A stretch of DNA of 64,000 bases, taken from contig OZ252243.1 in the NCBI GenBank assembly GCA_965249555.1, positions 2,112,001 through 2,176,000 of the forward strand. The letters are read 5' to 3'. The stretch is from Nitrosopumilus sp. Lineage in GTDB: Archaea; Thermoproteota; Nitrososphaeria; Nitrososphaerales; Nitrosopumilaceae. Both the position numbers and the translations under genes were made by a program. Under the pieces are notes generated by a model, which was not told the origin of the DNA, did not search any database, and saw only the letters and a list, made by a program, of their open reading frames with translations. Of this stretch, positions 10,083-60,095 are shown in pieces. Position 1 is the stretch's first letter; every line of letters begins with the position of its first letter.

Positions 10083-11196
10083 TCAACATCTAAAACGCGA
10101 CTTGCACAGTCCTAACTGTAATTCTGTACAAATTCTCTCTTTTAGCATCCAGTAAATAACTCGCAGGATCTTTGATGATGCGGCAACTGCGGCCTTTGAT
10201 GAGCCTCTCTTTTTCTTAATGCGATTGTAAAATTTTGTAATGTCACTGTTCTTGGCATGTATTGTATGGGCATGAACACATTGGGTAAGAACCCATCGTA
10301 GTGTCATGCTTCCCCTTTTGGTTATACGGCCATGGTGTAATCTGCAGAGTTTCTGACTGATGGCACGACTCGTGCATATGCGCATAACTTGTGAGAGTCA
10401 TTGAATCTGCTAATATCTGCAATTTCTGCTGCAATAACTAGTGATTAGTCACCAATTCCGGGTATTGATTTTATTATCATGGCATCAGGACTGGTCTTTA
10501 CGGCAGCATACACTCTTGAATTAATATCTTCAATTTGCAGATTAAGATGGCCTATCTGTCGTACAAATCCATCTATGCGATAGTCACCTAAGGGAGGTGA
10601 GTCTTCTGTTGTATGTTACAGTGAACGTGACTCCTGGTATCTTGATTCCCTCCTGTAACAAAATTCCATGAATAGAATTTTTGAGAGAGGTCCTCCACTG
10701 AACGAGTTTTTTTCTGTATCTTACCAGCTGGCGATGTTTTACTATCTTTTTGTTTGGAATATGGCATGTATCCCCAGCGCAAAAGATCTGCCCGTATTTT
10801 GGAATCAATCTTGCCTGTTTTTTTTGATGCGGCTATTGCCTTTGTAAGATACGGGTTTGAGAGTGTCACGTTTTGTATCCTAATTCATCTGTAAGAAATC
10901 TATACGTGTTATACTGATGATGACTCCATGACAATGTTTGCATGAATTGGTATGTCTGTAAAATGTTTCCTGATTGACTCATGAGTGTTCTCAACTTTTA
11001 TGTTTTGTAATATCTTTCCGTCATCATCCATTGTTGCTAGAAGAAATTCCTTGTGCAAGTCAATGCCAACATACATGCCCTTGTCTTTTTTTGCCCTAAT
11101 CTGTTTCTTTGGACTTTTCTTGGAATATGATGAATTACGAGCCCTGGACCTGGGTTCATTTTTCATGCTATCTGAATTCCTTCTTTTTGTATTCAC
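10083..11196 (-). pseudogene. IS110-family transposase, multiply frameshifted
   Basis: YVGIDLHK, VMESS, HGRITKRGSMTLRWVL, KAAVAASSKILRVIYWML spread over several frames. Confidence 0.85.
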
Positions 11197-29651: not shown

Positions 29652-29968
29652 TTGGCTTCATCTCCTTTTGCAAAAAACATACCGAAGTTGTAACATATGA
29701 TGTCTGGTTTCTAGTAGATGTTGTCATCCAGCTTAGCCTAGGCTAAGATTAAAAAAATACATGGATGTGATTGAATATCAATCTACTGTCTGTTATCTGA
29801 CAGACTGTGTTGCACTGAAAAAAGATTTCACGTGTCTGTAGTCTTTGTATGCTTTTGCTAGTTTGGTTGTATTTCTGTCAGATTTTATCCTGCCAGAACA
29901 GACGTCATTTCTGAAAATATCGTTTTTCATCTGGACGATTCTCATATGAGAATTTTTTTTACCAGTCG

Positions 29969-30050
29969 CACACCCATCCGCTGAGTCGGTTCTGAAACTG
30001 TGTTTCAAAATAAAATGGGTTTGGACTGTATGGCTCAGTCAAGAAAAAAA
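29969..30050 (-). promoter_or_regulatory. Core-only copy of conserved upstream repeat
   Basis: Direct sequence match. Confidence 0.8.
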
Positions 30051-30082: not shown

Positions 30083-30796
30083 TTAGCACCCAGATTGTTT
30101 TGCCCATGGTTCATCACCGAATTCACTGATATTACAGAATCGATGAATGATCTCCGCATGGCTGTTTGATACGAGTAATGAGTTGATAGATGCAGTTGGA
30201 GTGTGTGCTGGATATCCCATACACCACACCTTGGCAATCATCCTACCATGTGAGCCGCCTTTCTGCCCGTCGTCTGCATCATAGAGTACCGCGGTTCCAA
30301 CAGGGCATTGCTTTATTGTAAATGCAGTCGCATTAGAATAGCCTTGCTCGTTACGCTCTGGAGTGTTCACCAGGGATAGTCGTATTCGAATACCATCAAT
30401 GTCTATGGTATCACCGTCGACAATCTTTGTGACTTTTCCACTCTTAACCGTTCCATATGGTATGACATCAGGGATTTGCTGTTTTGCAATATTTGTTGAT
30501 GCAATATCATTTGGCGTATCTGCCGGTTCTGATATCTGGGTGTCATTGTGAACTTTTTCAAGTTCGTTTGTGGTGTTTGCAAAGACTGCACTTATGCCCT
30601 CTGTTTTTTCCTCAACTGATGATATCATTCCGGGAATGTCTGCTGCAAGCAGTGCTGGAACAACATAGGCGTATGTGAGGGATGCAATGCTGACAATAAA
30701 TACAGTCATGCAAACAGCCACTGTTATTTTTTTGATAAATTGTTTTTTTGACATGGACTCGTATGTGAGTTTCGGAAACTTATTCCTCATCAGCAT
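30083..30796 (-). CDS. Membrane-anchored staphylococcal-nuclease (thermonuclease) family protein
   Basis: GKVTKIVDGDTI..IRIRLSLVNTPE, HGRMIAKV, INSLLV; N-terminal TM. Confidence 0.9.
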   Translation of the reverse strand: MLMRNKFPKLTYESMSKKQFIKKITVAVCMTVFIVSIASLTYAYVVPALLAADIPGMISSVEEKTEGISAVFANTTNELEKVHNDTQISEPADTPNDIASTNIAKQQIPDVIPYGTVKSGKVTKIVDGDTIDIDGIRIRLSLVNTPERNEQGYSNATAFTIKQCPVGTAVLYDADDGQKGGSHGRMIAKVWCMGYPAHTPTASINSLLVSNSHAEIIHRFCNISEFGDEPWAKQSGC

Positions 30797-30838
30797 GTCT
30801 TCTAGTTGAGTTATATTGATGAAATGATATGAGAATAG

Positions 30839-30906
30839 TGAGGGTCAGAACTTTTGCTGTCATCATTACTGATGTTCAGATCAACGCCGCTCTCATCATC
30901 CCCTCA
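30839..30906 (-). ncRNA. Box C/D-type guide sRNA, copy 1
   Basis: UGAGGG-G-AUGAUGA-GAGCGGCGUUGAU-CUGA-ACAUCAGUA-AUGAUGA-CAGCAAAAGUU-CUGA-CCCUCA. Confidence 0.85.
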
Positions 30907-31072
30907 TTATCAATCTAGAATGTTTTGAAATGTGTAAATTGGAGTTTTGTAGACTGCACTTGTACCCTCTGTCTGCTCCTCAACTGATGATATCATTCCG
31001 GGAATGTCTGCTGCAAGCAGTGCCGTAACACTTCTGGTTATGAGTTATATTGATGAAATGATATGAGAATAG

Positions 31073-31140
31073 TGAGGGTCAGAATATGGGGCTGTCATCA
31101 TTACTGATGTTCAGATCAACGCCGTTCTCATATCCCCTCA
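31073..31140 (-). ncRNA. Box C/D-type guide sRNA, copy 2 (C box has a 1-nt deletion)
   Basis: C box reads AUAUGA; D' guide GAACGGCGUUGAU; D guide CAGCCCCAUAUU. Confidence 0.7.
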
Positions 31141-31306
31141 TTATCAATCTAGAATGTTTTGAAATGTGTAAATTGGAGTTTTGTAGACTGCACTTGTACC
31201 CTCTGTCTGCTCCTCAACTGATGATATCATTCCGGGAATGTCTGCTGCAAGCAGTGCCGTAACACTTCTGGTTATGAGTTATATTGATGGAATGATATGA
31301 GAATAG

Positions 31307-31374
31307 TGAGGGTCAGAATATTGGCTGTCATCATTACTGATGTTCAGATCAACGCCGTTCTCATCATCCCCTCA
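31307..31374 (-). ncRNA. Box C/D-type guide sRNA, copy 3
   Basis: Perfect C, D', C', D boxes; D' guide GAACGGCGUUGAU; D guide CAGCCAAUAUU. Confidence 0.85.
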
Positions 31375-31540
31375 TTATCAATCTAGAATGTTTTGAAATG
31401 TGTAAATTGGAGTTTTGTAGACTGCACTTGTACCCTCTGTCTGCTCCTCAACTGATGATATCATTCCGGGAATGTCTGCTGCAAGCAGTGCCGTAACACT
31501 TCTGGTTATGAGTTATATTGATGGAATGATATGAGAATAG

Positions 31541-31608
31541 TGAGGGTCAGAACGGTTTTCTGTCATCATATTGATGTTCAGCTCAACGCCGCTCTCATCA
31601 TCCCCTCA
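31541..31608 (-). ncRNA. Box C/D-type guide sRNA, copy 4
   Basis: Perfect boxes; D' guide GAGCGGCGUUGAG; D guide CAGAAAACCGUU. Confidence 0.85.
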
Positions 31609-31912
31609 TTATCAATCTAGAATGTTTTGAAATGTGTAAATTGGAGTTTTGTAAAATTTTAGGATATTTGGAAAATTGTATTGGGTTTTGTAAAGTTTTA
31701 GGATTTTGGAAAATTGTAAAGTTTGGAGTTTTGCAGAGTTGTAAATGGTTTTGGAAAAAAGTCAGTTTCTTGTAATGATTTTGTGGTTTTTGATTTTGTT
31801 GTCTGTTTTTTTGGTTTTAGTTTTGGGTTGTAAAGCGTTGCAATATTCTGCAACGCCAAAACATCCTGAAAATTCAATCAAAATATTTTCTTGTACCGTT
31901 TTTCTGCAGATA

Positions 31913-32179
31913 CTAGAATTCAGGCTCTCCGTCATCTGCAATTCCCGGTTTTGTATCAGAGATGGTATCTTTTTTTGGATCTGGATTGATTGTTCCCATA
32001 ACATCAGTTAGAATCTTTGAGACCTCAATACCCATACTGTCCTGGTTTTGTATGTAAAGCAGTAGATCCTCGCTTGTCTGCTCCAGCTTCCTTCTGATTC
32101 TTGCCCGAATCTCCCTTTGGTATTTCTTTGAGAATGTCTGTGGTGATATGATAAATCTCCTCTCCTTTGGACTCAGCAA
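31913..32179 (-). CDS. Small basic protein, putative ParR-like adaptor (paralog of 46948-47226)
   Basis: MLSPKERRFIISPQTFSKK vs MPLTEKEKRVIVSPLSFSSK; follows an actin gene remnant. Confidence 0.65.
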   Translation of the reverse strand: MLSPKERRFIISPQTFSKKYQREIRARIRRKLEQTSEDLLLYIQNQDSMGIEVSKILTDVMGTINPDPKKDTISDTKPGIADDGEPEF

Positions 32180-32285: not shown

Positions 32286-32515
32286 TCGGTTCAACCCCCT
32301 ATTTCTGAAATAACGTTTCCAGTAGTACAATTCCTGTATGTGAAATTACTTTTTGAACATCTCTTTGAGATATCCTGTTTGTAATTCCTAGGAATAATTT
32401 TCATTGAAACCGTTTGTGATTTCAATTATGTCATCTCACACCCATCCGCTGAGTCGGTTCTGAAACTATGTTTCAAAATAAAACGGGTTTGGATGGTATG
32501 GCTCAGTCAAAAAAA
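32282..32515 (-). promoter_or_regulatory. Conserved upstream repeat
   Basis: Near-identical to R1. Confidence 0.85.
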
Positions 32516-32527
32516 GATGCTGTATGT

Positions 32528-33046
32528 CTACAGCTTGTCTTCTATTCTCTTTAAGATACTTGTCATATCTTTGAGAGAATTTGATGTCTCTTTCTGAGAT
32601 GATGCTGTCTCTTTCTGAGATGATGCTATCTCTTTGAGAGAATTTGATGTCTCTTTCTGAGATGATGCTATCTCTTTGAGAGAATTTGATGTCTCTTTCT
32701 GAGATGATGCTATCTCTTTGAGAATTCCAGATGTCTCTATATGGTTTTCTTTGAGAATTTTTGTATGGCTCTCAAGGATTTCATTTTGCTCGTTGAATCG
32801 CCTGTACAGCTTGTGTGCCACATCTCTTGTTGCAAGCATCATATAGACACCTACGACGCCGGCAATAATAAAGGCAGCTCCCAAGGCAATCAGCATTTCA
32901 TTATATGGGGCGTGATTCCAAGTGCCAGAATACCTGCTCCCAGACACATTATAACAAACAACCAGTGGTTGCCTTTTGTGGTATCTTGTATTTGGGATGA
33001 AATCCTTCTTATCTGGTTTTTGATATCTACCACTTGTAATTTTCAT
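32528..33046 (-). pseudogene. Family M1 membrane protein, 1-bp frameshift
   Basis: G4 at 32907-32910 versus G5 in the other five copies. Confidence 0.65.
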
Positions 33047-45670: not shown

Positions 45671-45740
45671 TAGAGGGCTCAGATAGATGGCTGTCATCAC
45701 TAATGATGTCAGATTGCCAGAGACTCATCATAGCCCTCTA
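45671..45740 (-). ncRNA. Box C/D-type guide sRNA, diverged fifth copy
   Basis: UAGAGGGC-U-AUGAUGA-GUCUCUGGCAAU-CUGA-CAUCAUUA-GUGAUGA-CAGCCAUCUAU-CUGA-GCCCUCUA. Confidence 0.85.
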
Positions 45741-46106
45741 TTTTGTTTTTGTATGGTTGGAGATTCTATCTCGGTTTTGCAAAGATTTGGCGTATTTGTG
45801 GTTGTCTAATTAGACAGCCTTTTTGATATTTTTTGTTAAAATTGTGTTTTTTTGTTGTGTTTGAGAAAACCTAGGGATTTTTTCTTATCTGCTGATTTTA
45901 CAGTCTTTTTTGTTGTGTTGGTTTTTTTACGCTTGATTTTAATTATGTATGGAAATTTTCTATTCAGGACTTTTTTTATCTCCATCATACAGCAAAATGC
46001 ATGGGTCGTCAAATTAGGCAACCATACAAGTGATTTTGTGTTTGAGGTTGTCTATTTAGGCAACCACAAAAAGTCGCCTTTTATTGAAAATTTACACCAT
46101 CATACG

Positions 46107-46961
46107 ATGAATGAAAATATAATTGGCTTAGACGTTGGAACTGGTTCAGTCAAAGTTGCAACGGTTCATGGAACGTTTGCATTCCCATCAATAGTTGCAA
46201 GAGGAAAAAGCATGGAGCTTGAATCAAGAGGAATGGTTCTAGTCGGAGAAGATGCAGTAAAGGCAGAACAGGTAAAGTCAGTGGTTCTAAAGACTCCAGT
46301 ATATAGAGGAGCGCCAACATCCATTAATGATTATTTGGAATTGATCAAACATGCATTAGATAAAGCAATAGAGCCACAAAAATATGCGTTATACAAATCC
46401 CAAAAGTATTCCGATTTGGTAATTATTGCAGGAATTCCTTACAATGCAAAAGAGTACAGTCAAAAAATAAAGGACTCAGTTATTGAAAAATTTGCCCCAA
46501 AGTTCTTTGGGTTGATGTATCAGGCAAAGGCAACGCTGGATAATGAAGATATGACTCATGGTATCGTATGTCATATCGGTCATGGTACAACTGAGATAAT
46601 GGTAGTATCGCATGGAAATATTGCACATGCTCAAACAATTAATCACGGGGTTGGAGACATAACAAATGTCATAACATCATCCAAGGCAGACTATTTGAAT
46701 GAGAAGATATTTTCAAAAAATACCGTACAATTAGCAGAGCAGAGAAAAATTCTTGCAGCACACATATCTGATGTATTGGAAAAAGTCATAATTGACTATC
46801 CACAGATTCCTGTGATTTGTGCAGGAGGCGGTGCACTAGTTCCAAAATTGATAGGTGAAATCAAAAATGACATAATTATCCATGTAAGAATTGCAAAGAA
46901 TCCAGTATATTCAAACGCACTTGGAATGCTAAAAAAGGCATCAAAACATGCCTCTGACTGA
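46107..46961 (+). CDS. ParM/StbA-like actin-family ATPase (284 aa; likely start MNENIIGLDVG)
   Basis: GLDVGTGSVK, FPSIV, HIGHGTTE, AGGGAL, YSNALG. Confidence 0.85.
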   Translation: MNENIIGLDVGTGSVKVATVHGTFAFPSIVARGKSMELESRGMVLVGEDAVKAEQVKSVVLKTPVYRGAPTSINDYLELIKHALDKAIEPQKYALYKSQKYSDLVIIAGIPYNAKEYSQKIKDSVIEKFAPKFFGLMYQAKATLDNEDMTHGIVCHIGHGTTEIMVVSHGNIAHAQTINHGVGDITNVITSSKADYLNEKIFSKNTVQLAEQRKILAAHISDVLEKVIIDYPQIPVICAGGGALVPKLIGEIKNDIIIHVRIAKNPVYSNALGMLKKASKHASD

Positions 46962-48003: not shown

Positions 48004-48414
48004 TCATTCCAATAGTACTGTCATGATGTCCACATCATAATTTCCCAACGTATCGTATGCGTCAAATTGTACGATTATCTCATCTCCAGGAGTCATACCT
48101 GTAACTGGTATTACATCCAGATACTCTTTTGATTCTAGTATGTGTATCAACGGAGTTGAATCTGGATTGTGCAGTAATTTTACATGCGAGATAGAATCTA
48201 CAGTAACTGTGACGTTTTGTATGGTGTAATCCCCCATATTGTGTATGGTATAACTCAAAAATACAATATCGTTTACAAGATCTGCCCTTGCAAAGACTTG
48301 TATCTCAAGCTCGTCAAGATTAGTTGCACCTGAATTCAATATTAATGCAAACACAGAGCCTGTAACTGCAGTAACTACTGCGATATGTATCATGGTTTCT
48401 TTTGTTAGCATCAT
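48004..48414 (-). CDS. Pilin-like or membrane-anchored Ig-fold protein
   Basis: N-terminal hydrophobic helix, TIHNMGD..I, beta-rich body. Confidence 0.5.
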   Translation of the reverse strand: MMLTKETMIHIAVVTAVTGSVFALILNSGATNLDELEIQVFARADLVNDIVFLSYTIHNMGDYTIQNVTVTVDSISHVKLLHNPDSTPLIHILESKEYLDVIPVTGMTPGDEIIVQFDAYDTLGNYDVDIMTVLLE

Positions 48415-48941
48415 GACATATCACATGTGACGTATTTTTTTATCTCCAGTATTGCAGGGATCATACTATCAATGCTTGATGCTGTGATGACTAGTTTTGT
48501 ATCATATGCCTTTATTGCTACACCATTGGGAAATGACATCTGTATTGCAGGAAAAGACTGAATATCTTTTGTGTAATGGATGGTACCCCTCAAGACATCA
48601 ACATTTATCACACCATGATACTCAACAATTGCTGAAATCATAACTATTTGAGGTTGGGATGTTACAATACATTTCATCCCAATATCATTTAATTCCCTTA
48701 CAAAATCATGCAATGACTGTATTGCCTTTTCCTGAGTAGTTGATTTTGTAGAAGTCATTTTACCTGAATCATACAGATTGATTGTTCTCTGCTTTGTAGT
48801 AATTACAGTAGCTGGAAATCCATTCGGCCTATACTTTACACCATGTATTTTTTTTAAAATTATATCAACATCAAAACCTGAAATTTCTGCGCTTGAGACA
48901 TAGTTTGTTATCTTTATGATTGGCTTTTTGGTATCCGTCAT
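48411..48941 (-). CDS. tbp: Divergent TATA-box-binding protein homolog (176 aa)
   Basis: Two TBP repeats: IKITNYVSSA..YRPNGFPA..NLYDSGKMTST and IVMISA..QSFPAI..KAYDTKLVIT. Confidence 0.75.
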   Translation of the reverse strand: MTDTKKPIIKITNYVSSAEISGFDVDIILKKIHGVKYRPNGFPATVITTKQRTINLYDSGKMTSTKSTTQEKAIQSLHDFVRELNDIGMKCIVTSQPQIVMISAIVEYHGVINVDVLRGTIHYTKDIQSFPAIQMSFPNGVAIKAYDTKLVITASSIDSMIPAILEIKKYVTCDMS

Positions 48942-48942
48942 G

Positions 48943-49314
48943 TTATGATATGGATGAATTGTATTTGAGCAGGCTTTTTCGGTGATGTACATTTGAGAGA
49001 ACAGTACAAAAACATGCAACAGTCACAATGTATGTAATTATTAGATCATCATACCACAAAAATACCACACACTGTATCAGAAAAGAAATTACACCAATTA
49101 AAAGAAATGACATTCCATTTGGGAGAAATTTTGAAAAAATATGAAACAGTTGGTTTGTCTCATGTGTTTTGTAGTTTGGAATTGATACGGTAGAGAGGAA
49201 ATCAGATGAGAACGCAACTCCCCATAACACAAATGGTATAATCACTCCATAATCTGCAAGAACTACTTTGAGTGCTATTCCAAATAGAACAGAAAATATG
49301 GCAGTGATAAACAA
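48943..49314 (-). CDS. Multi-pass membrane protein
   Basis: About four hydrophobic segments. Confidence 0.6.
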   Translation of the reverse strand: MFITAIFSVLFGIALKVVLADYGVIIPFVLWGVAFSSDFLSTVSIPNYKTHETNQLFHIFSKFLPNGMSFLLIGVISFLIQCVVFLWYDDLIITYIVTVACFCTVLSNVHHRKSLLKYNSSIS

Positions 49315-57748: not shown

Positions 57749-59233
57749 TCAGTGAGTTGCAGTATGAATTCTTCCCTCCATATCATAAAGACAAATTTCT
57801 ACACCACTTAGCCAATCAATATTGCCATCTATATCTTCATATTTCAAATTACCAAAAATAAGGGAATCCCCACCAGTCCCATAGGCTAGTGAAAGAGACC
57901 AGTATAGCGGTGGAAAAAACGATTGAGTTCTCAATCTGTCCTCAAATTTATCCAGAAATTTCTGAATGAATTCATCATCCAGTCCCATATCTCTCATGGA
58001 TACTTCTACGCTTTGATCAGGGTAGCTTGACTGAAGAAATTCCAAAAGATCTTCCCATTGTCTATCTGAAATATAGTCTGAGTCTTGGTATGGCTCTTCT
58101 ACTATGAGATATGAATGCTGCTCAAAGAATCCTTCCTTGTATGGAGATGTTCCAGCAAATCCAGGATATGCTTCAAAGAATCCTGTTATATAATCCTCAT
58201 CAAGGATAGATTGTCTACTTAACCATCCTTCATAATTATCAGGTACCTCAGGATATGAATCTATAAGATATTTTGCAAGAGCATCATATGTCGGAGGACT
58301 GTAAGAATCTTCATTATGTACAATCATTAATTCATGATATTGCCCAAGTTGGCTTGGACCTTCACCAATCATGTATACTGGATCTTCACTAAGATGTACT
58401 ATATTATCAGGTGCAATATAGTAGTAAATTCTTTCATCAGATGATGGTATATAGGTAACATATATCTCACCATAATTGTAATCAACATTTGGTTGATTAA
58501 TTACAAATGAGAATATTTCTTGTTGTGGAGAAGTGTTATCATACATTGGTTGAACACTTCCTGTTTCAAATGTTCTAGGGAAATGAGTCGTATCAGTACC
58601 TACGCCATCAGATATGTAATCAGGTCTGTTTAAAAGTTTTACATACGTAGGATGATGAATGAAAATACTATATTCACCACATCTCTCTACTGGACATTCA
58701 AATTCTGAATCTTCATAATCTTCAAAATCTACACCAAATTCATCATCACCATCTGATGGTACAATAAAACTATAATCTAAGACAACATTAAAAGACTCTC
58801 CTACTCTCACTTCTTCTGGAAAAGTCAAAGTATATTGTGGCCAAAAAGGTTCATATGATCCAAGTTCACCTGTACCGATTTCTTTTCCAATATTAGTCAT
58901 AGATATTTTTTTGTCACTTGATGAGATTTCTGAATTTACTATTTTAGATGGAGTCAATTGAAAATCTGATTGAATAATTTCCCAACCATAAGATTCTAAT
59001 TTCTTTGCTGTATTTTCATTTACACAAGCTGGAGTATTTCGTGGCGATTCCATTAAAATTTTCGAACCATTACATTGAATTTCATTAATTGGTATTCTCG
59101 AACTGAATTGTTGTAGTGGTGATAAAGTTTCTGATTCTGCAAGTGCAGGCATTGCACTTAATCCGATAGCAATGACTGCAAGCAGTATTGATGTTGTTAT
59201 ATTATTCAATAATTTATAATAGTATAGAAGCAT
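57749..59233 (-). CDS. Secreted acidic protein with thaumarchaeal N-terminal motif; probably C-terminally truncated
   Basis: SPLQQF..IQC..PACV..TAKKLESYGW; ends next to IS1595 remnant. Confidence 0.7.
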   Translation of the reverse strand: MLLYYYKLLNNITTSILLAVIAIGLSAMPALAESETLSPLQQFSSRIPINEIQCNGSKILMESPRNTPACVNENTAKKLESYGWEIIQSDFQLTPSKIVNSEISSSDKKISMTNIGKEIGTGELGSYEPFWPQYTLTFPEEVRVGESFNVVLDYSFIVPSDGDDEFGVDFEDYEDSEFECPVERCGEYSIFIHHPTYVKLLNRPDYISDGVGTDTTHFPRTFETGSVQPMYDNTSPQQEIFSFVINQPNVDYNYGEIYVTYIPSSDERIYYYIAPDNIVHLSEDPVYMIGEGPSQLGQYHELMIVHNEDSYSPPTYDALAKYLIDSYPEVPDNYEGWLSRQSILDEDYITGFFEAYPGFAGTSPYKEGFFEQHSYLIVEEPYQDSDYISDRQWEDLLEFLQSSYPDQSVEVSMRDMGLDDEFIQKFLDKFEDRLRTQSFFPPLYWSLSLAYGTGGDSLIFGNLKYEDIDGNIDWLSGVEICLYDMEGRIHTATH

Positions 59234-59600
59234 ATTAGGGATTGGTAACTTAACGGGAGCTGTTTTCTCGTGGAAAGTGTCGGGAGCTGACGTTTTGAAT
59301 CAGGGGTCTATTATAGTGACATAGACATGAAATCACAATCTTATTCAGATTCAAAAATTAAAATGGAATAAAAAGAATCAAAAGACGGTTCAGAGCAAAG
59401 CCTAATCATCACGATTGGCTTCAGACTAACGCTTTCTTTATTCCGGGATGGGAAAATAGGCTAATCTATCATGTCCCGAATCAAACACTTTTGGAAAATA
59501 CCCATAATATCGAAATTGGGATTTTCCATGTCCCTAATCAAACAGCAGGTGGAAGTGTCCCAAAGTTTGAACAGTACCATATTCTACCACTCGCAGATTA

Positions 59601-60078
59601 CACAGACGTTATACGAAATCTTTTTCATATCTTGTGATGTATACCTACTGTTGGGCCTGAGAGTTGAATGAATACTGCCATGTACAAGGACGTTACACAG
59701 ACTAACTCAAAGTGAGCGGAAAACAAAATACCACATAGATGGCAAATGGGAGCATTCCGCTAGATCAGGCAATTTGATCAAAAAGGAGGTGATGGTATGA
59801 TCAGCATAGGAATTGATGTTCACAAAATAAAATGTGTTGCAACAAAATAGGAATCCAGAAAGAAGCTAGAGCAGACAAGCTTTGATAATACCACAAATGG
59901 AATAATGGGTTTTATCAAACATATCAAAAAGACATATGGCAATGACATACAGGCAGTGTGCGAATCAACTGCAAACTATTGGATCAGACTACATGACACA
60001 CTAGAGGACCATGGAATTGATACAATTCTTGCACATCCTGCAAAGACCAAGATAATTGCACAGGCAAAGCTAAAAAAC
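59601..60078 (+). pseudogene. IS110-family remnant (inverted sister of 21608-22084)
   Basis: ISIGIDVHK, AVCESTANYW. Confidence 0.75.
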
Positions 60079-60095
60079 ATACCATAAATGGAAAA

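Follow-up and report, generated by a model that had tools for sequence, protein, structure and literature searches.

A tandem array of box C/D-type guide RNA units with one hypervariable guide on a conjugative-type element of Nitrosopumilus sp.

What is the function of four nearly identical 68-nt units that follow one another on the minus strand of an apparent conjugative-type element in a mesophilic ammonia oxidiser? The units occupy positions 30807-31653 of a 64,000-nt stretch of Nitrosopumilus sp. DNA (assembly GCA_965249555.1, contig OZ252243.1, positions 2,112,001 to 2,176,000 of the forward strand), referred to here as the window. They have the layout of archaeal box C/D small RNAs (sRNAs), with one guide that is shared and one that differs in every copy. 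An earlier annotation made from the letters alone, here called the sequence-only reading, had proposed that such an array either borrows the host 2'-O-methylation machinery or serves an unrecognised effector. Judged from layout, conservation, covariation, and complementarity, the units are likely to be true box C/D sRNA genes, members of an accessory family that is carried by such elements and employs the L7Ae, Nop5, and fibrillarin proteins of the host.

Unit architecture and conservation

The array was identified by Tandem Repeats Finder as a repeat with a period of 234, 3.6 copies, 96% matches, and a score of 1561, and a repeat search of the window returned four in-register copies at a spacing of exactly 234 bp. 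On the minus strand the order within a unit is UGAGGG-GAUGAUGA-13 nt-CUGA-8/9 nt-UGAUGA-11/12 nt-CUGA-CCCUCA. The sequence-only reading had described four 68-nt units, each with boxes C, D', C', and D enclosed by a terminal stem of 6 bp, and these were thereby reproduced from the letters as well as by the repeat finder. The outer boxes, RUGAUGA (C) close to the 5' end and CUGA (D) close to the 3' end, are perfect in three of the array units (u1, u3, and u4) and in a solitary homologous unit of the same window (u5), and the internal boxes D' (CUGA) and C' (UGAUGA) are found in all five units. The guide spacers of 13 nt (C to D') and 11–12 nt (C' to D) fit the ~12-nt spacing of archaeal C/D RNAs, and the terminal stems are 6–8 bp long across units. 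A strict C/D'/C'/D regular expression applied to the 2.23-Mb genome matched four times, each time in the window (u1, u3, u4, and u5), and a relaxed expression gave six stem-bearing candidates genome-wide compared with none on the reversed genome. The box-and-stem units therefore do not arise by chance.

All four array units match the archaeal C/D model RF00095 of Rfam on the correct strand, with sub-threshold scores of 18–29 bits. The first unit of the array, u4 (31541..31608, minus strand, as for all units; D guide 31551-31562; 21.8 bits), has a loop that is shorter by one base and a G as the 3' base of its D' guide. It is followed by u3 (31307..31374; D guide 31317-31327; 29.0 bits) and by u2 (31073..31140; D guide 31083-31094; 18.2 bits), which has the layout of u1 with one base missing from box C, so that this box reads GAU-AUGA. 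Because of this deletion, noted already in the sequence-only reading and present in the sequence, u2 is probably defective. The 68-nt unit u1 (30839..30906; 26.9 bits) comprises box C (30893-30900), the D' guide (30880-30892), box D' (30876-30879), box C' (30860-30865), the D guide (30849-30859), and box D (30845-30848). The D guides of the four array units read CAGCAAAAGUU, CAGCCCCAUAUU, CAGCCAAUAUU, and CAGAAAACCGUU, the same letters as reported before. The solitary unit u5 (45671..45740) is 70 nt long, has an 8-bp stem (UAGAGGGC/GCCCUCUA), and lies in the divergent intergenic region beside a ParM-like gene. With a covariance model built from 20 aligned units (model R1), u1 scores 66.9 bits and u5 gives the best-scoring match of all, at 81.8 bits.

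In the 20 aligned units, 93.8% of the cells in the terminal stem and central hairpin pair, compared with 30–56% when the partners are slid by 1–3 columns; the value for the terminal stem alone is 91.7%. Both partners have changed in three pairs, of which two belong to the outer stem and the third to the hairpin (A-U to U-A in 7 units), and the covariation score was reached by 0/500 shuffles. The hairpin change (CAUCA/UGAUG to CUUCA/UGAAG) is compensatory and backs the earlier suggestion that the D'/C' region can fold as a central hairpin. G-U pairs are present in the outer stem of one aligned unit and in the GCUCUC stems of locus L158, and the box motifs are strand-asymmetric.

Relatives of the units were found in a small number of genomes. 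The central-hairpin pattern located units in 3/401 genomes of the family, all from one genus, with no match for the reversed-pattern control, and a second pattern located them in 5/151 genomes of the genus. The covariance-model search that the sequence-only reading had envisaged for Nitrosopumilaceae was run within the genus, where model R1 found units in 8/61 high-quality genomes; all eight are 1.9–2.6 Mb in size and mostly nearly closed assemblies. A scan of one genome per prokaryotic species gave 18 stretches, 8 of them in records of Nitrosopumilus sp. or a Nitrosopumilaceae archaeon, and the layout is missing from the other 10 (nine bacteria and one Thermoplasmata). With a general expression, 40 units were collected from nine sources, the window and eight loci, and more were found in three further genomes. 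Among the 80 loci listed in a metagenome scan with the hairpin pattern, none has the full layout and all are chance matches, a result with no bearing on environmental spread, and a scan of viral contigs with the general stem-and-box pattern gave no stretches. As the family is sporadic, it is accessory rather than core. Homologous units elsewhere keep the stem and the boxes, C' as UGANGA and D' mostly as CUGA, and carry other guides, so that box conservation in homologous loci, on which the sequence-only reading depended, was confirmed. Tandem arrays recur with periods of 129–146 nt in two loci of genome G274, 192 nt in G449, 141–174 nt in locus L156 (at least 11 units), and 234–259 nt in L158.

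Two more C/D-like units lie on the chromosome outside the window, at C1:180178-180256 (L201:1530-1609) and C1:2013706-2013781 (L205:1513-1588). They score 38 and 28 bits with model R1, have GAAGGGC/GCCCUUC stems and a common downstream sequence, and both carry a guide containing GCCGUGA; the L201 guide pairs with transfer RNA (tRNA)-Asp(GUC) by 9 bp. A unit of the L201 type was found in only 3/61 genus genomes, in one of them as four dispersed copies, which suggests a mobile sRNA unit resembling a miniature inverted-repeat transposable element (MITE).

Unit-specific guide words were found in contigs of the public DNA runs X2 and X5. In X2, which may be the source sample and is thus not independent, the pieces over the u1, u2, and u4 guides have a depth of 7500 and the shared part has a depth of 22973. 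A contig of X5, from a different study, matches 31041-31240 with no differences and includes the u2 C-box deletion. Runs X4 and X5 have no or low contig cover over parts of the array, from which no conclusion is drawn. In run X1, contigs with a depth of 31–39, compared with thousands for the main form, cover the u4/u3 regions with 3–6 differences (31525-31593, 31296-31357, and 30940-31024), and these could reflect either low-abundance guide variants in the population or sequencing errors, given the very high depth.

The constant and the variable guide

The D' guide of the array, GAGCGGCGUUGAU or GAACGGCGUUGAU, with a final G in u4, forms eight Watson-Crick pairs and one G-U pair with positions 904-912 of 16S ribosomal RNA (rRNA), with the fifth base from box D' opposite A908. 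This site lies in the helix 31 region. The 9-nt core of the guide, GGCGUUGAU, is common to 11 further units in four other genomes, comprising five units of G274 (one with an extra U), four variants of L156 (GGCGUUGU), and a single unit each of G449 and G357. On the 5' side of the core, four bases differ between units (GAGC, GAAC, GACC, and GACA), so that the conserved stretch is exactly the one complementary to 16S 904-912. No second guide for this site was found elsewhere in this genome.

The guides recurring in more than one genome show 10–11 bp of complementarity to host rRNA or tRNA, judged against 100 shuffled guides. Both GACCUGGCGUUGAU and AUCUGGCGUUGU form 10 Watson-Crick pairs with 16S 905-915 (equalled by 0/100 and 2/100 shuffles, respectively), GUUCCAUUCAUU forms 11 pairs with 23S 2071-2081 (3/100), and CAGCCUGUUAUA forms 10 pairs with 23S 2549-2558 (0/100). 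Ten pairs are likewise formed by GCCGCGUGCAAU with the anticodon loop and stem of tRNA-Ala(UGC) (3/100) and by AAAGCCGUGACAU with the anticodon loop of tRNA-Asp(GUC) (0/100), and in both tRNA matches the fifth guide base is opposite C36. In terms of the Escherichia coli rRNAs, these sites correspond to helix 31 of 16S, helix 71 of 23S, and the peptidyl-transferase centre (its central loop). Besides the two tRNA anticodon loops, the conserved guides would therefore be directed at the P site of the ribosome, at a helix of an intersubunit bridge, and at the peptidyl-transferase centre. The earlier suggestion that guide complements could be sought in host rRNA and tRNA is upheld for these recurrent guides, which are significant, but not for any u1–u5 guide taken alone: in a sliding complementarity search against 16S, 23S, and 56 tRNAs none of them beats its shuffles (equal-or-better fraction 0.21–0.998). 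Genome-wide complements of the D' guides with at most one mismatch occur only at the units themselves, no cis targets of the guides were found in the window or the 19-kb loci, and no ACU-NNNN-GUGUC-type sites were found in rRNA. The conserved D' core and the longer relatives that pair with 16S favor the ordinary host methylation machinery. Of the two options in the sequence-only reading, this is the one that gains support; the unrecognised effector does not.

The host encodes one Nop5, one fibrillarin, and L7Ae-type proteins elsewhere on its chromosome, and no gene for any of the three was found in the window. A mechanism consistent with these features is that boxes C and D would form a kink-turn (K-turn) beside the 6-bp terminal stem, and that host L7Ae, Nop5, and fibrillarin would assemble on the RNA, since the element itself encodes none of them. 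The constant D' guide would then direct 2'-O-methylation to A908, opposite the fifth guide base, and the D guide would act as a second, hypervariable specificity module. Transcription, protein binding, and methylation are steps that we infer.

Variation between the units is strikingly localized. In the unit alignment the D-guide core is variable in 7/9 columns compared with 6/226 columns elsewhere (Fisher p = 8e-9); five of those six lie elsewhere inside the sRNA and one in the 166-nt remainder. The description of the units as nearly identical except for the D guide is accordingly correct in where the variation is concentrated, but too strict, as six other columns vary too. In the two loci of G274, units match one another over ~130 nt apart from differences in the D-guide core (CAACCGAAAAU versus CAACACACAAU, for example, and also CAGCCACAAU, CAGCCAAAAAU, and CAGCUAAAAU). 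The 16S guide sits at D' in most units and at D in L156, where three canonical units with nearly identical spacers vary in the D' core (GACAC-CAAC/ACAC/CCCC-AGU). Taken together with the pattern in the window and G274, this swapped arrangement indicates that the hypervariability follows the partner of the 16S guide, on either side. Certain guide pairs are retained despite diverged stems and hairpins: CAGCCACAAU accompanies the 16S guide in both G449 and G274, and GUCUCUGGCGAU accompanies CAGCAAAGCUAU in two genomes. Within L156, one D guide occurs with different D' guides. The pairs kept across diverged units and the reuse of the L156 D guide point to modular guide exchange and to selection on at least some variants, and it seems that duplication, together with the exchange of short tracts at the conserved stem and hairpin, both creates units and reshuffles them.

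A bolder proposal, which we regard as doubtful, is that the D guide is an actively diversified specificity cassette, in which a constant rRNA anchor is kept while the 4–9-nt core of its partner is rapidly rewritten, redirecting the host fibrillarin complex to new RNAs. The rewriting could possibly occur by short-tract conversion or by a targeted mutational process, the mode of core diversification being our inference, and the targets could be tRNA anticodon loops or transcripts of host-defence genes or rival elements. If so, 2'-O-methyl groups at such sites would block ribonuclease cleavage or decoding, and the array would be a natural, mobile, and self-diversifying RNA-guided RNA-modification system and an extant intermediate form linking box C/D sRNAs with TIGR-type guide arrays. 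The D guides match the whole genome at chance numbers. For the shielding of RNAs or silencing of defence mRNAs that the sequence-only reading had raised, no variable guide gave a target better than its shuffled controls. An anticodon-loop test (at least 7 bp, with the fifth base opposite positions 32–38) was positive for 4/22 D guides and 2/17 D' guides, compared with shuffled means of 3.3 and 2.9. With this test at chance level, no claim is made for two 7-bp matches, one between u1 and tRNA-Lys(UUU) and the other between CAGCCACAAU and tRNA-His. A reverse-transcriptase origin of the variation, as in diversity-generating retroelements, was rejected, as there is no RVT_1 match in the genome.

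Several observations weigh against the interpretation of the units as genuine, host-dependent box C/D sRNA genes. The match of the array D' guide is not significant alone, as 33–38/100 shuffles reach eight pairs, and when the 16 variable guides were compared with rRNA and tRNA none beat its shuffles. The targets of units from other genomes were scored on the rRNA and tRNA of this genome as stand-ins. Two short candidate chromosomal C/D sRNAs (C1:401496-401545 and C1:902438-902484; GUGAUGA...CUGA, 5–6-bp stems, degenerate internal boxes), used as positive controls, gave no significant rRNA or tRNA targets either, and the target test is therefore of limited power. The RF00095 gathering score of 45 is not reached by the array units, and a gathering-threshold search of the whole window gave no matches to any model; RF00095 derives from RNAs of Pyrococcus. 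The central hairpin, itself backed by the compensatory change, can take up the C' box, and this fold could compete with a C'/D' K-loop. Finally, C boxes are mutated in u2 and in some G274 units, and part of the array may be decaying.

Origin of the array, its setting, and alternative explanations

Every 234-bp repeat holds one sRNA gene, the TATA-like word AATATAAC, and an 80-nt copy of an internal fragment of the nuclease gene that lies downstream, and the array is therefore the product of tandem duplication of a segment running from the sRNA gene into the nuclease gene. This gene (30083..30796, minus strand) encodes 237 amino acids with an N-terminal membrane segment and a weak SNase-like domain (Pfam SNase, 17.2 bits against a cut-off of 21). 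The fragment at 30951..31030 (minus strand) is 91% identical to 30583-30662 and occurs again at 31185-31264 and 31419-31498. The word AATATAAC (30810..30817, minus strand; also at 31044, 31278, and 31512) follows every unit, and words resembling it trail units in two other genomes; with its last copy ~20–27 nt ahead of the two ATGs of the nuclease gene, it may act as a TATA-like element. A second TATA-like word, TTTACA (30933..30938, minus strand), starts 32 nt upstream of the 5' end of u1 and repeats at 31167, 31401, and 31635. Its position would suit an archaeal TATA box and suggests a promoter element. Upstream of the array a run of TTTACA(A) words with spacings of 15 to 39 nt (31635..31745, minus strand) possibly represents iterons or promoter elements. 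A recent duplication of the 234-bp segment would thus have given rise to four box C/D genes, of which all but u2, with its broken C box, have intact boxes.

Such an origin raises the question of whether the sRNA genes were simply carried along with an amplified piece of the nuclease locus and are now decaying debris without function. The promoter-plus-gene fragment of the nuclease gene in each unit, the tandem gene-module duplications that fill the surrounding 23–43 kb, the broken C box of u2, and the mere 9 bp between the D' guide and 16S would all agree with this. However, neutral decay cannot place 7/13 variable columns in a 9-nt core and only one in the 166-nt part outside the sRNA, and the same concentration recurs in G274 and, at the D' position, in L156. 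Units u1, u3, and u4 show no flaw in their boxes or stems, and specific guide pairs have been kept between genomes despite diverged stems and hairpins. We therefore consider decay of the whole array to be quite unlikely.

The genes nearby support, from their predicted products, an integrated conjugative-type element, as the sequence-only reading had assumed: the window encodes a TraG/VirD4-like protein, a VirB4/TraG-P-loop ATPase, an ArdC-like protein, and a ParM/actin-like protein. Further products include a TBP paralogue, an IS66 transposase, a DNA methylase, and many tandemly duplicated small-gene modules. The box C/D genes would belong to an accessory family carried on integrated conjugative-type elements of the genus. 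The ParM/actin-like gene (45852..46961, plus strand; Pfam MreB_Mbl 40.9 bits, Actin 29.3 bits) is divergent from u5, and a ParM-like gene divergently adjoins units in L028, L029, L032, and L158 as well. The gene upstream of the array (31913..32179, minus strand; 88 amino acids, no Pfam match) resembles, by eye, the 92-amino acid gene that follows the ParM-like gene, and its position suggests a ParR-like protein. A nuclease homologue trails the array in the window, L028, L029, L032, and L156, and neither a ParM-like nor a nuclease gene was found within 9.5 kb of the units in L030, L031, and L033.

A dedicated effector encoded by the element, using two short guides to read two DNA strands as in TIGR-Tas-like or IS110-like targeting, is highly improbable. 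Tandem arrays with two short guides on a mobile element, one with a variable spacer of 8–12 nt, do resemble TIGR stem-loop arrays as far as the available text on these describes them, and a conserved protein of 305–347 amino acids, its fold without assignment, lies downstream in several loci. However, the units have full K-turn boxes (RUGAUGA/CUGA) rather than the CCA/UG-type motifs of tigRNAs, and a 68-nt unit at a 234-nt period in place of ~36-nt units or closely packed stem-loops, again by comparison with the available text. In addition, the recurrent guides are complementary to rRNA and tRNA, which are what fibrillarin guides classically target. A six-frame search of the genome for Nop domains found only the chromosomal Nop5 (C1:1375959-1376615), confirming that the window has no intact Nop-domain gene, and none of the 20 window proteins scanned has a Nop match, although a divergent Tas could escape the Pfam model. 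The 345-amino acid neighbor was considered as a candidate hidden Nop or Tas protein: it has 34 homologues, no Pfam match, and no PDB sequence match, and its AlphaFold model, too poor overall (mean pLDDT 60) to decide the matter and only partly confident, is beta-rich with a zinc ribbon, shows no Nop-like fold, and has no Foldseek match in the PDB at E <= 0.001.

It is also very unlikely that the repeats work chiefly at the DNA level, forming a centromere-like or iteron array that serves ParM/ParR-like partition, with secondary RNA features, since the tandem arrangement, the TTTACA(A) words in and upstream of the array, and the ParM-like gene or its small partner beside the arrays (window, L028, L029, L032, and L158) are set against strand-asymmetric boxes instead of palindromic half-sites, stems with G-U pairs that would be mismatches in DNA, periods ranging from 129 to 259 nt between genomes, and conserved guide cores complementary to rRNA and tRNA. 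The DNA and RNA roles are not mutually exclusive.

Other features of the region were observed alongside. Between 23000 and 43500 the window contains tandem duplications of 1.7–2.5-kb gene modules, with five to seven copies each of open reading frames (ORFs) of 120, 69–72, 77–99, and 140–175 amino acids and interspersed HicA/HicB-like pairs (recognised by eye only), which makes this part of the element very recombinogenic. A repeat of 82 nt with 93% identity lies downstream of minus-strand genes at 29966-30047 and 32434-32515; its bin has ~18–36x the depth of neighboring contigs in public runs, which suggests a multi-copy short element in those samples. Within a 172-amino acid coiled-coil gene, a 21-nt (7-codon) tandem repeat of the KEIASSQKETSNSL type (32568-32756) varies in copy number among paralogues. 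The element encodes a TBP-domain protein (48411-49019; Pfam TBP 33.6 bits) and may bring its own TATA-binding factor; a 179-amino acid ORF near the ParM-like gene of L028 was judged by eye to be similar. Two copies of a 1066-bp direct repeat (96.7% identical) at window 59013-60078 (C1:2171013-2172078) and C1:2091626-2092691 are 79 kb apart and bracket most of the window, and may be copies of an insertion sequence or an element boundary. ORFs at 10083-11196 and 59905-60087 resemble, by eye, fragments of IS110-family transposases.

Comparison with known guide RNA systems

We did not find the arrangement of four tandem C/D guide genes with one apparently 16S-directed and one hypervariable guide described for archaeal mobile elements. 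The literature searched contained no description of mobile-element-borne or thaumarchaeal C/D sRNA arrays, although clusters of archaeal sRNAs may be listed in Tripp et al. 2017 or the supplementary material of PMC6009581, and PMC6563490, which surveys integrated elements of thaumarchaea, makes no use of the words snoRNA, sRNA, non-coding, ParM, actin, or fibrillarin. Box C/D guide RNAs are treated, in the available part of a review, as chromosomal housekeeping genes that are abundant in thermophiles and few in mesophiles, whereas here whole arrays are borne by a conjugative-type element of a mesophile. Should the arrays be active, a mobile element would be able to change how the translation machinery of its host is modified. 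The localized hypervariability of the partner guide, which recurs in three arrays, would provide a concrete case of natural diversification of RNA-guided methylation specificity, and its cause and purpose are the interesting part of the finding.

The units share with archaeal box C/D sRNAs the boxes C/D'/C'/D, the terminal stem, the two ~12-nt guides, and a length of 68–70 nt. Their recurrent guides fit functional regions of rRNA and tRNA anticodon loops, and the host has the three proteins; 23S helices 68–71 and the peptidyl-transferase centre are hotspots of archaeal guide targets according to the available part of the review. In contrast to those sRNAs, the units lie on a conjugative-type element, are sporadic in the genus, are homologous in stem and central hairpin beyond the boxes, form tandem arrays of 2 to at least 11 units with one hypervariable guide, and have an 8–9-nt D'-C' spacer that can pair with box C'.

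Lui et al. 2018 (PMC6009581) describe MITE-like C/D sRNA elements in Pyrobaculum together with duplicated sRNAs, and the likeness extends to a multi-copy C/D-like family with orphan guides in unstable genome regions, to guide replacement and target migration, and to circular permutation of guides, comparable to the 16S guide at D' or, in L156, at D. In that work, however, the copies are dispersed on the chromosome of a hyperthermophile, whereas those described here are in tandem on a mobile element of a mesophile, with variation in a 4–9-nt core. Polycistronic snoRNA clusters of plants and trypanosomatids and archaeal clusters of two or three sRNA genes, as far as the available text of the review and the reference list of PMC12045711 cover them, also have several C/D genes in a row, probably processed from longer transcripts. 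Those clusters are chromosomal and consist of distinct RNAs for distinct rRNA sites, unlike the near-identical copies of the present array, which share one guide and differ in the other.

The arrays also bear on the proposed evolutionary link between box C/D RNAs and the tandem guide arrays of mobile elements. TIGR arrays with Tas, as the available text presents them, consist of ~36-nt dual-repeat units or close stem-loops with CCA/UG-type boxes and ~9-nt spacers (Faure et al. 2025, PMC12045711; bioRxiv 2026.09.09.750476). Both systems place tandem dual-spacer guides on mobile elements, with motifs named box C and box D and with stem-loop variants. In contrast to TIGR-Tas as described there, the array of Nitrosopumilus sp. 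has no adjacent Nop-domain (Tas) gene, has boxes of the K-turn type and a much longer unit and period, and carries one guide that is conserved and matches rRNA.

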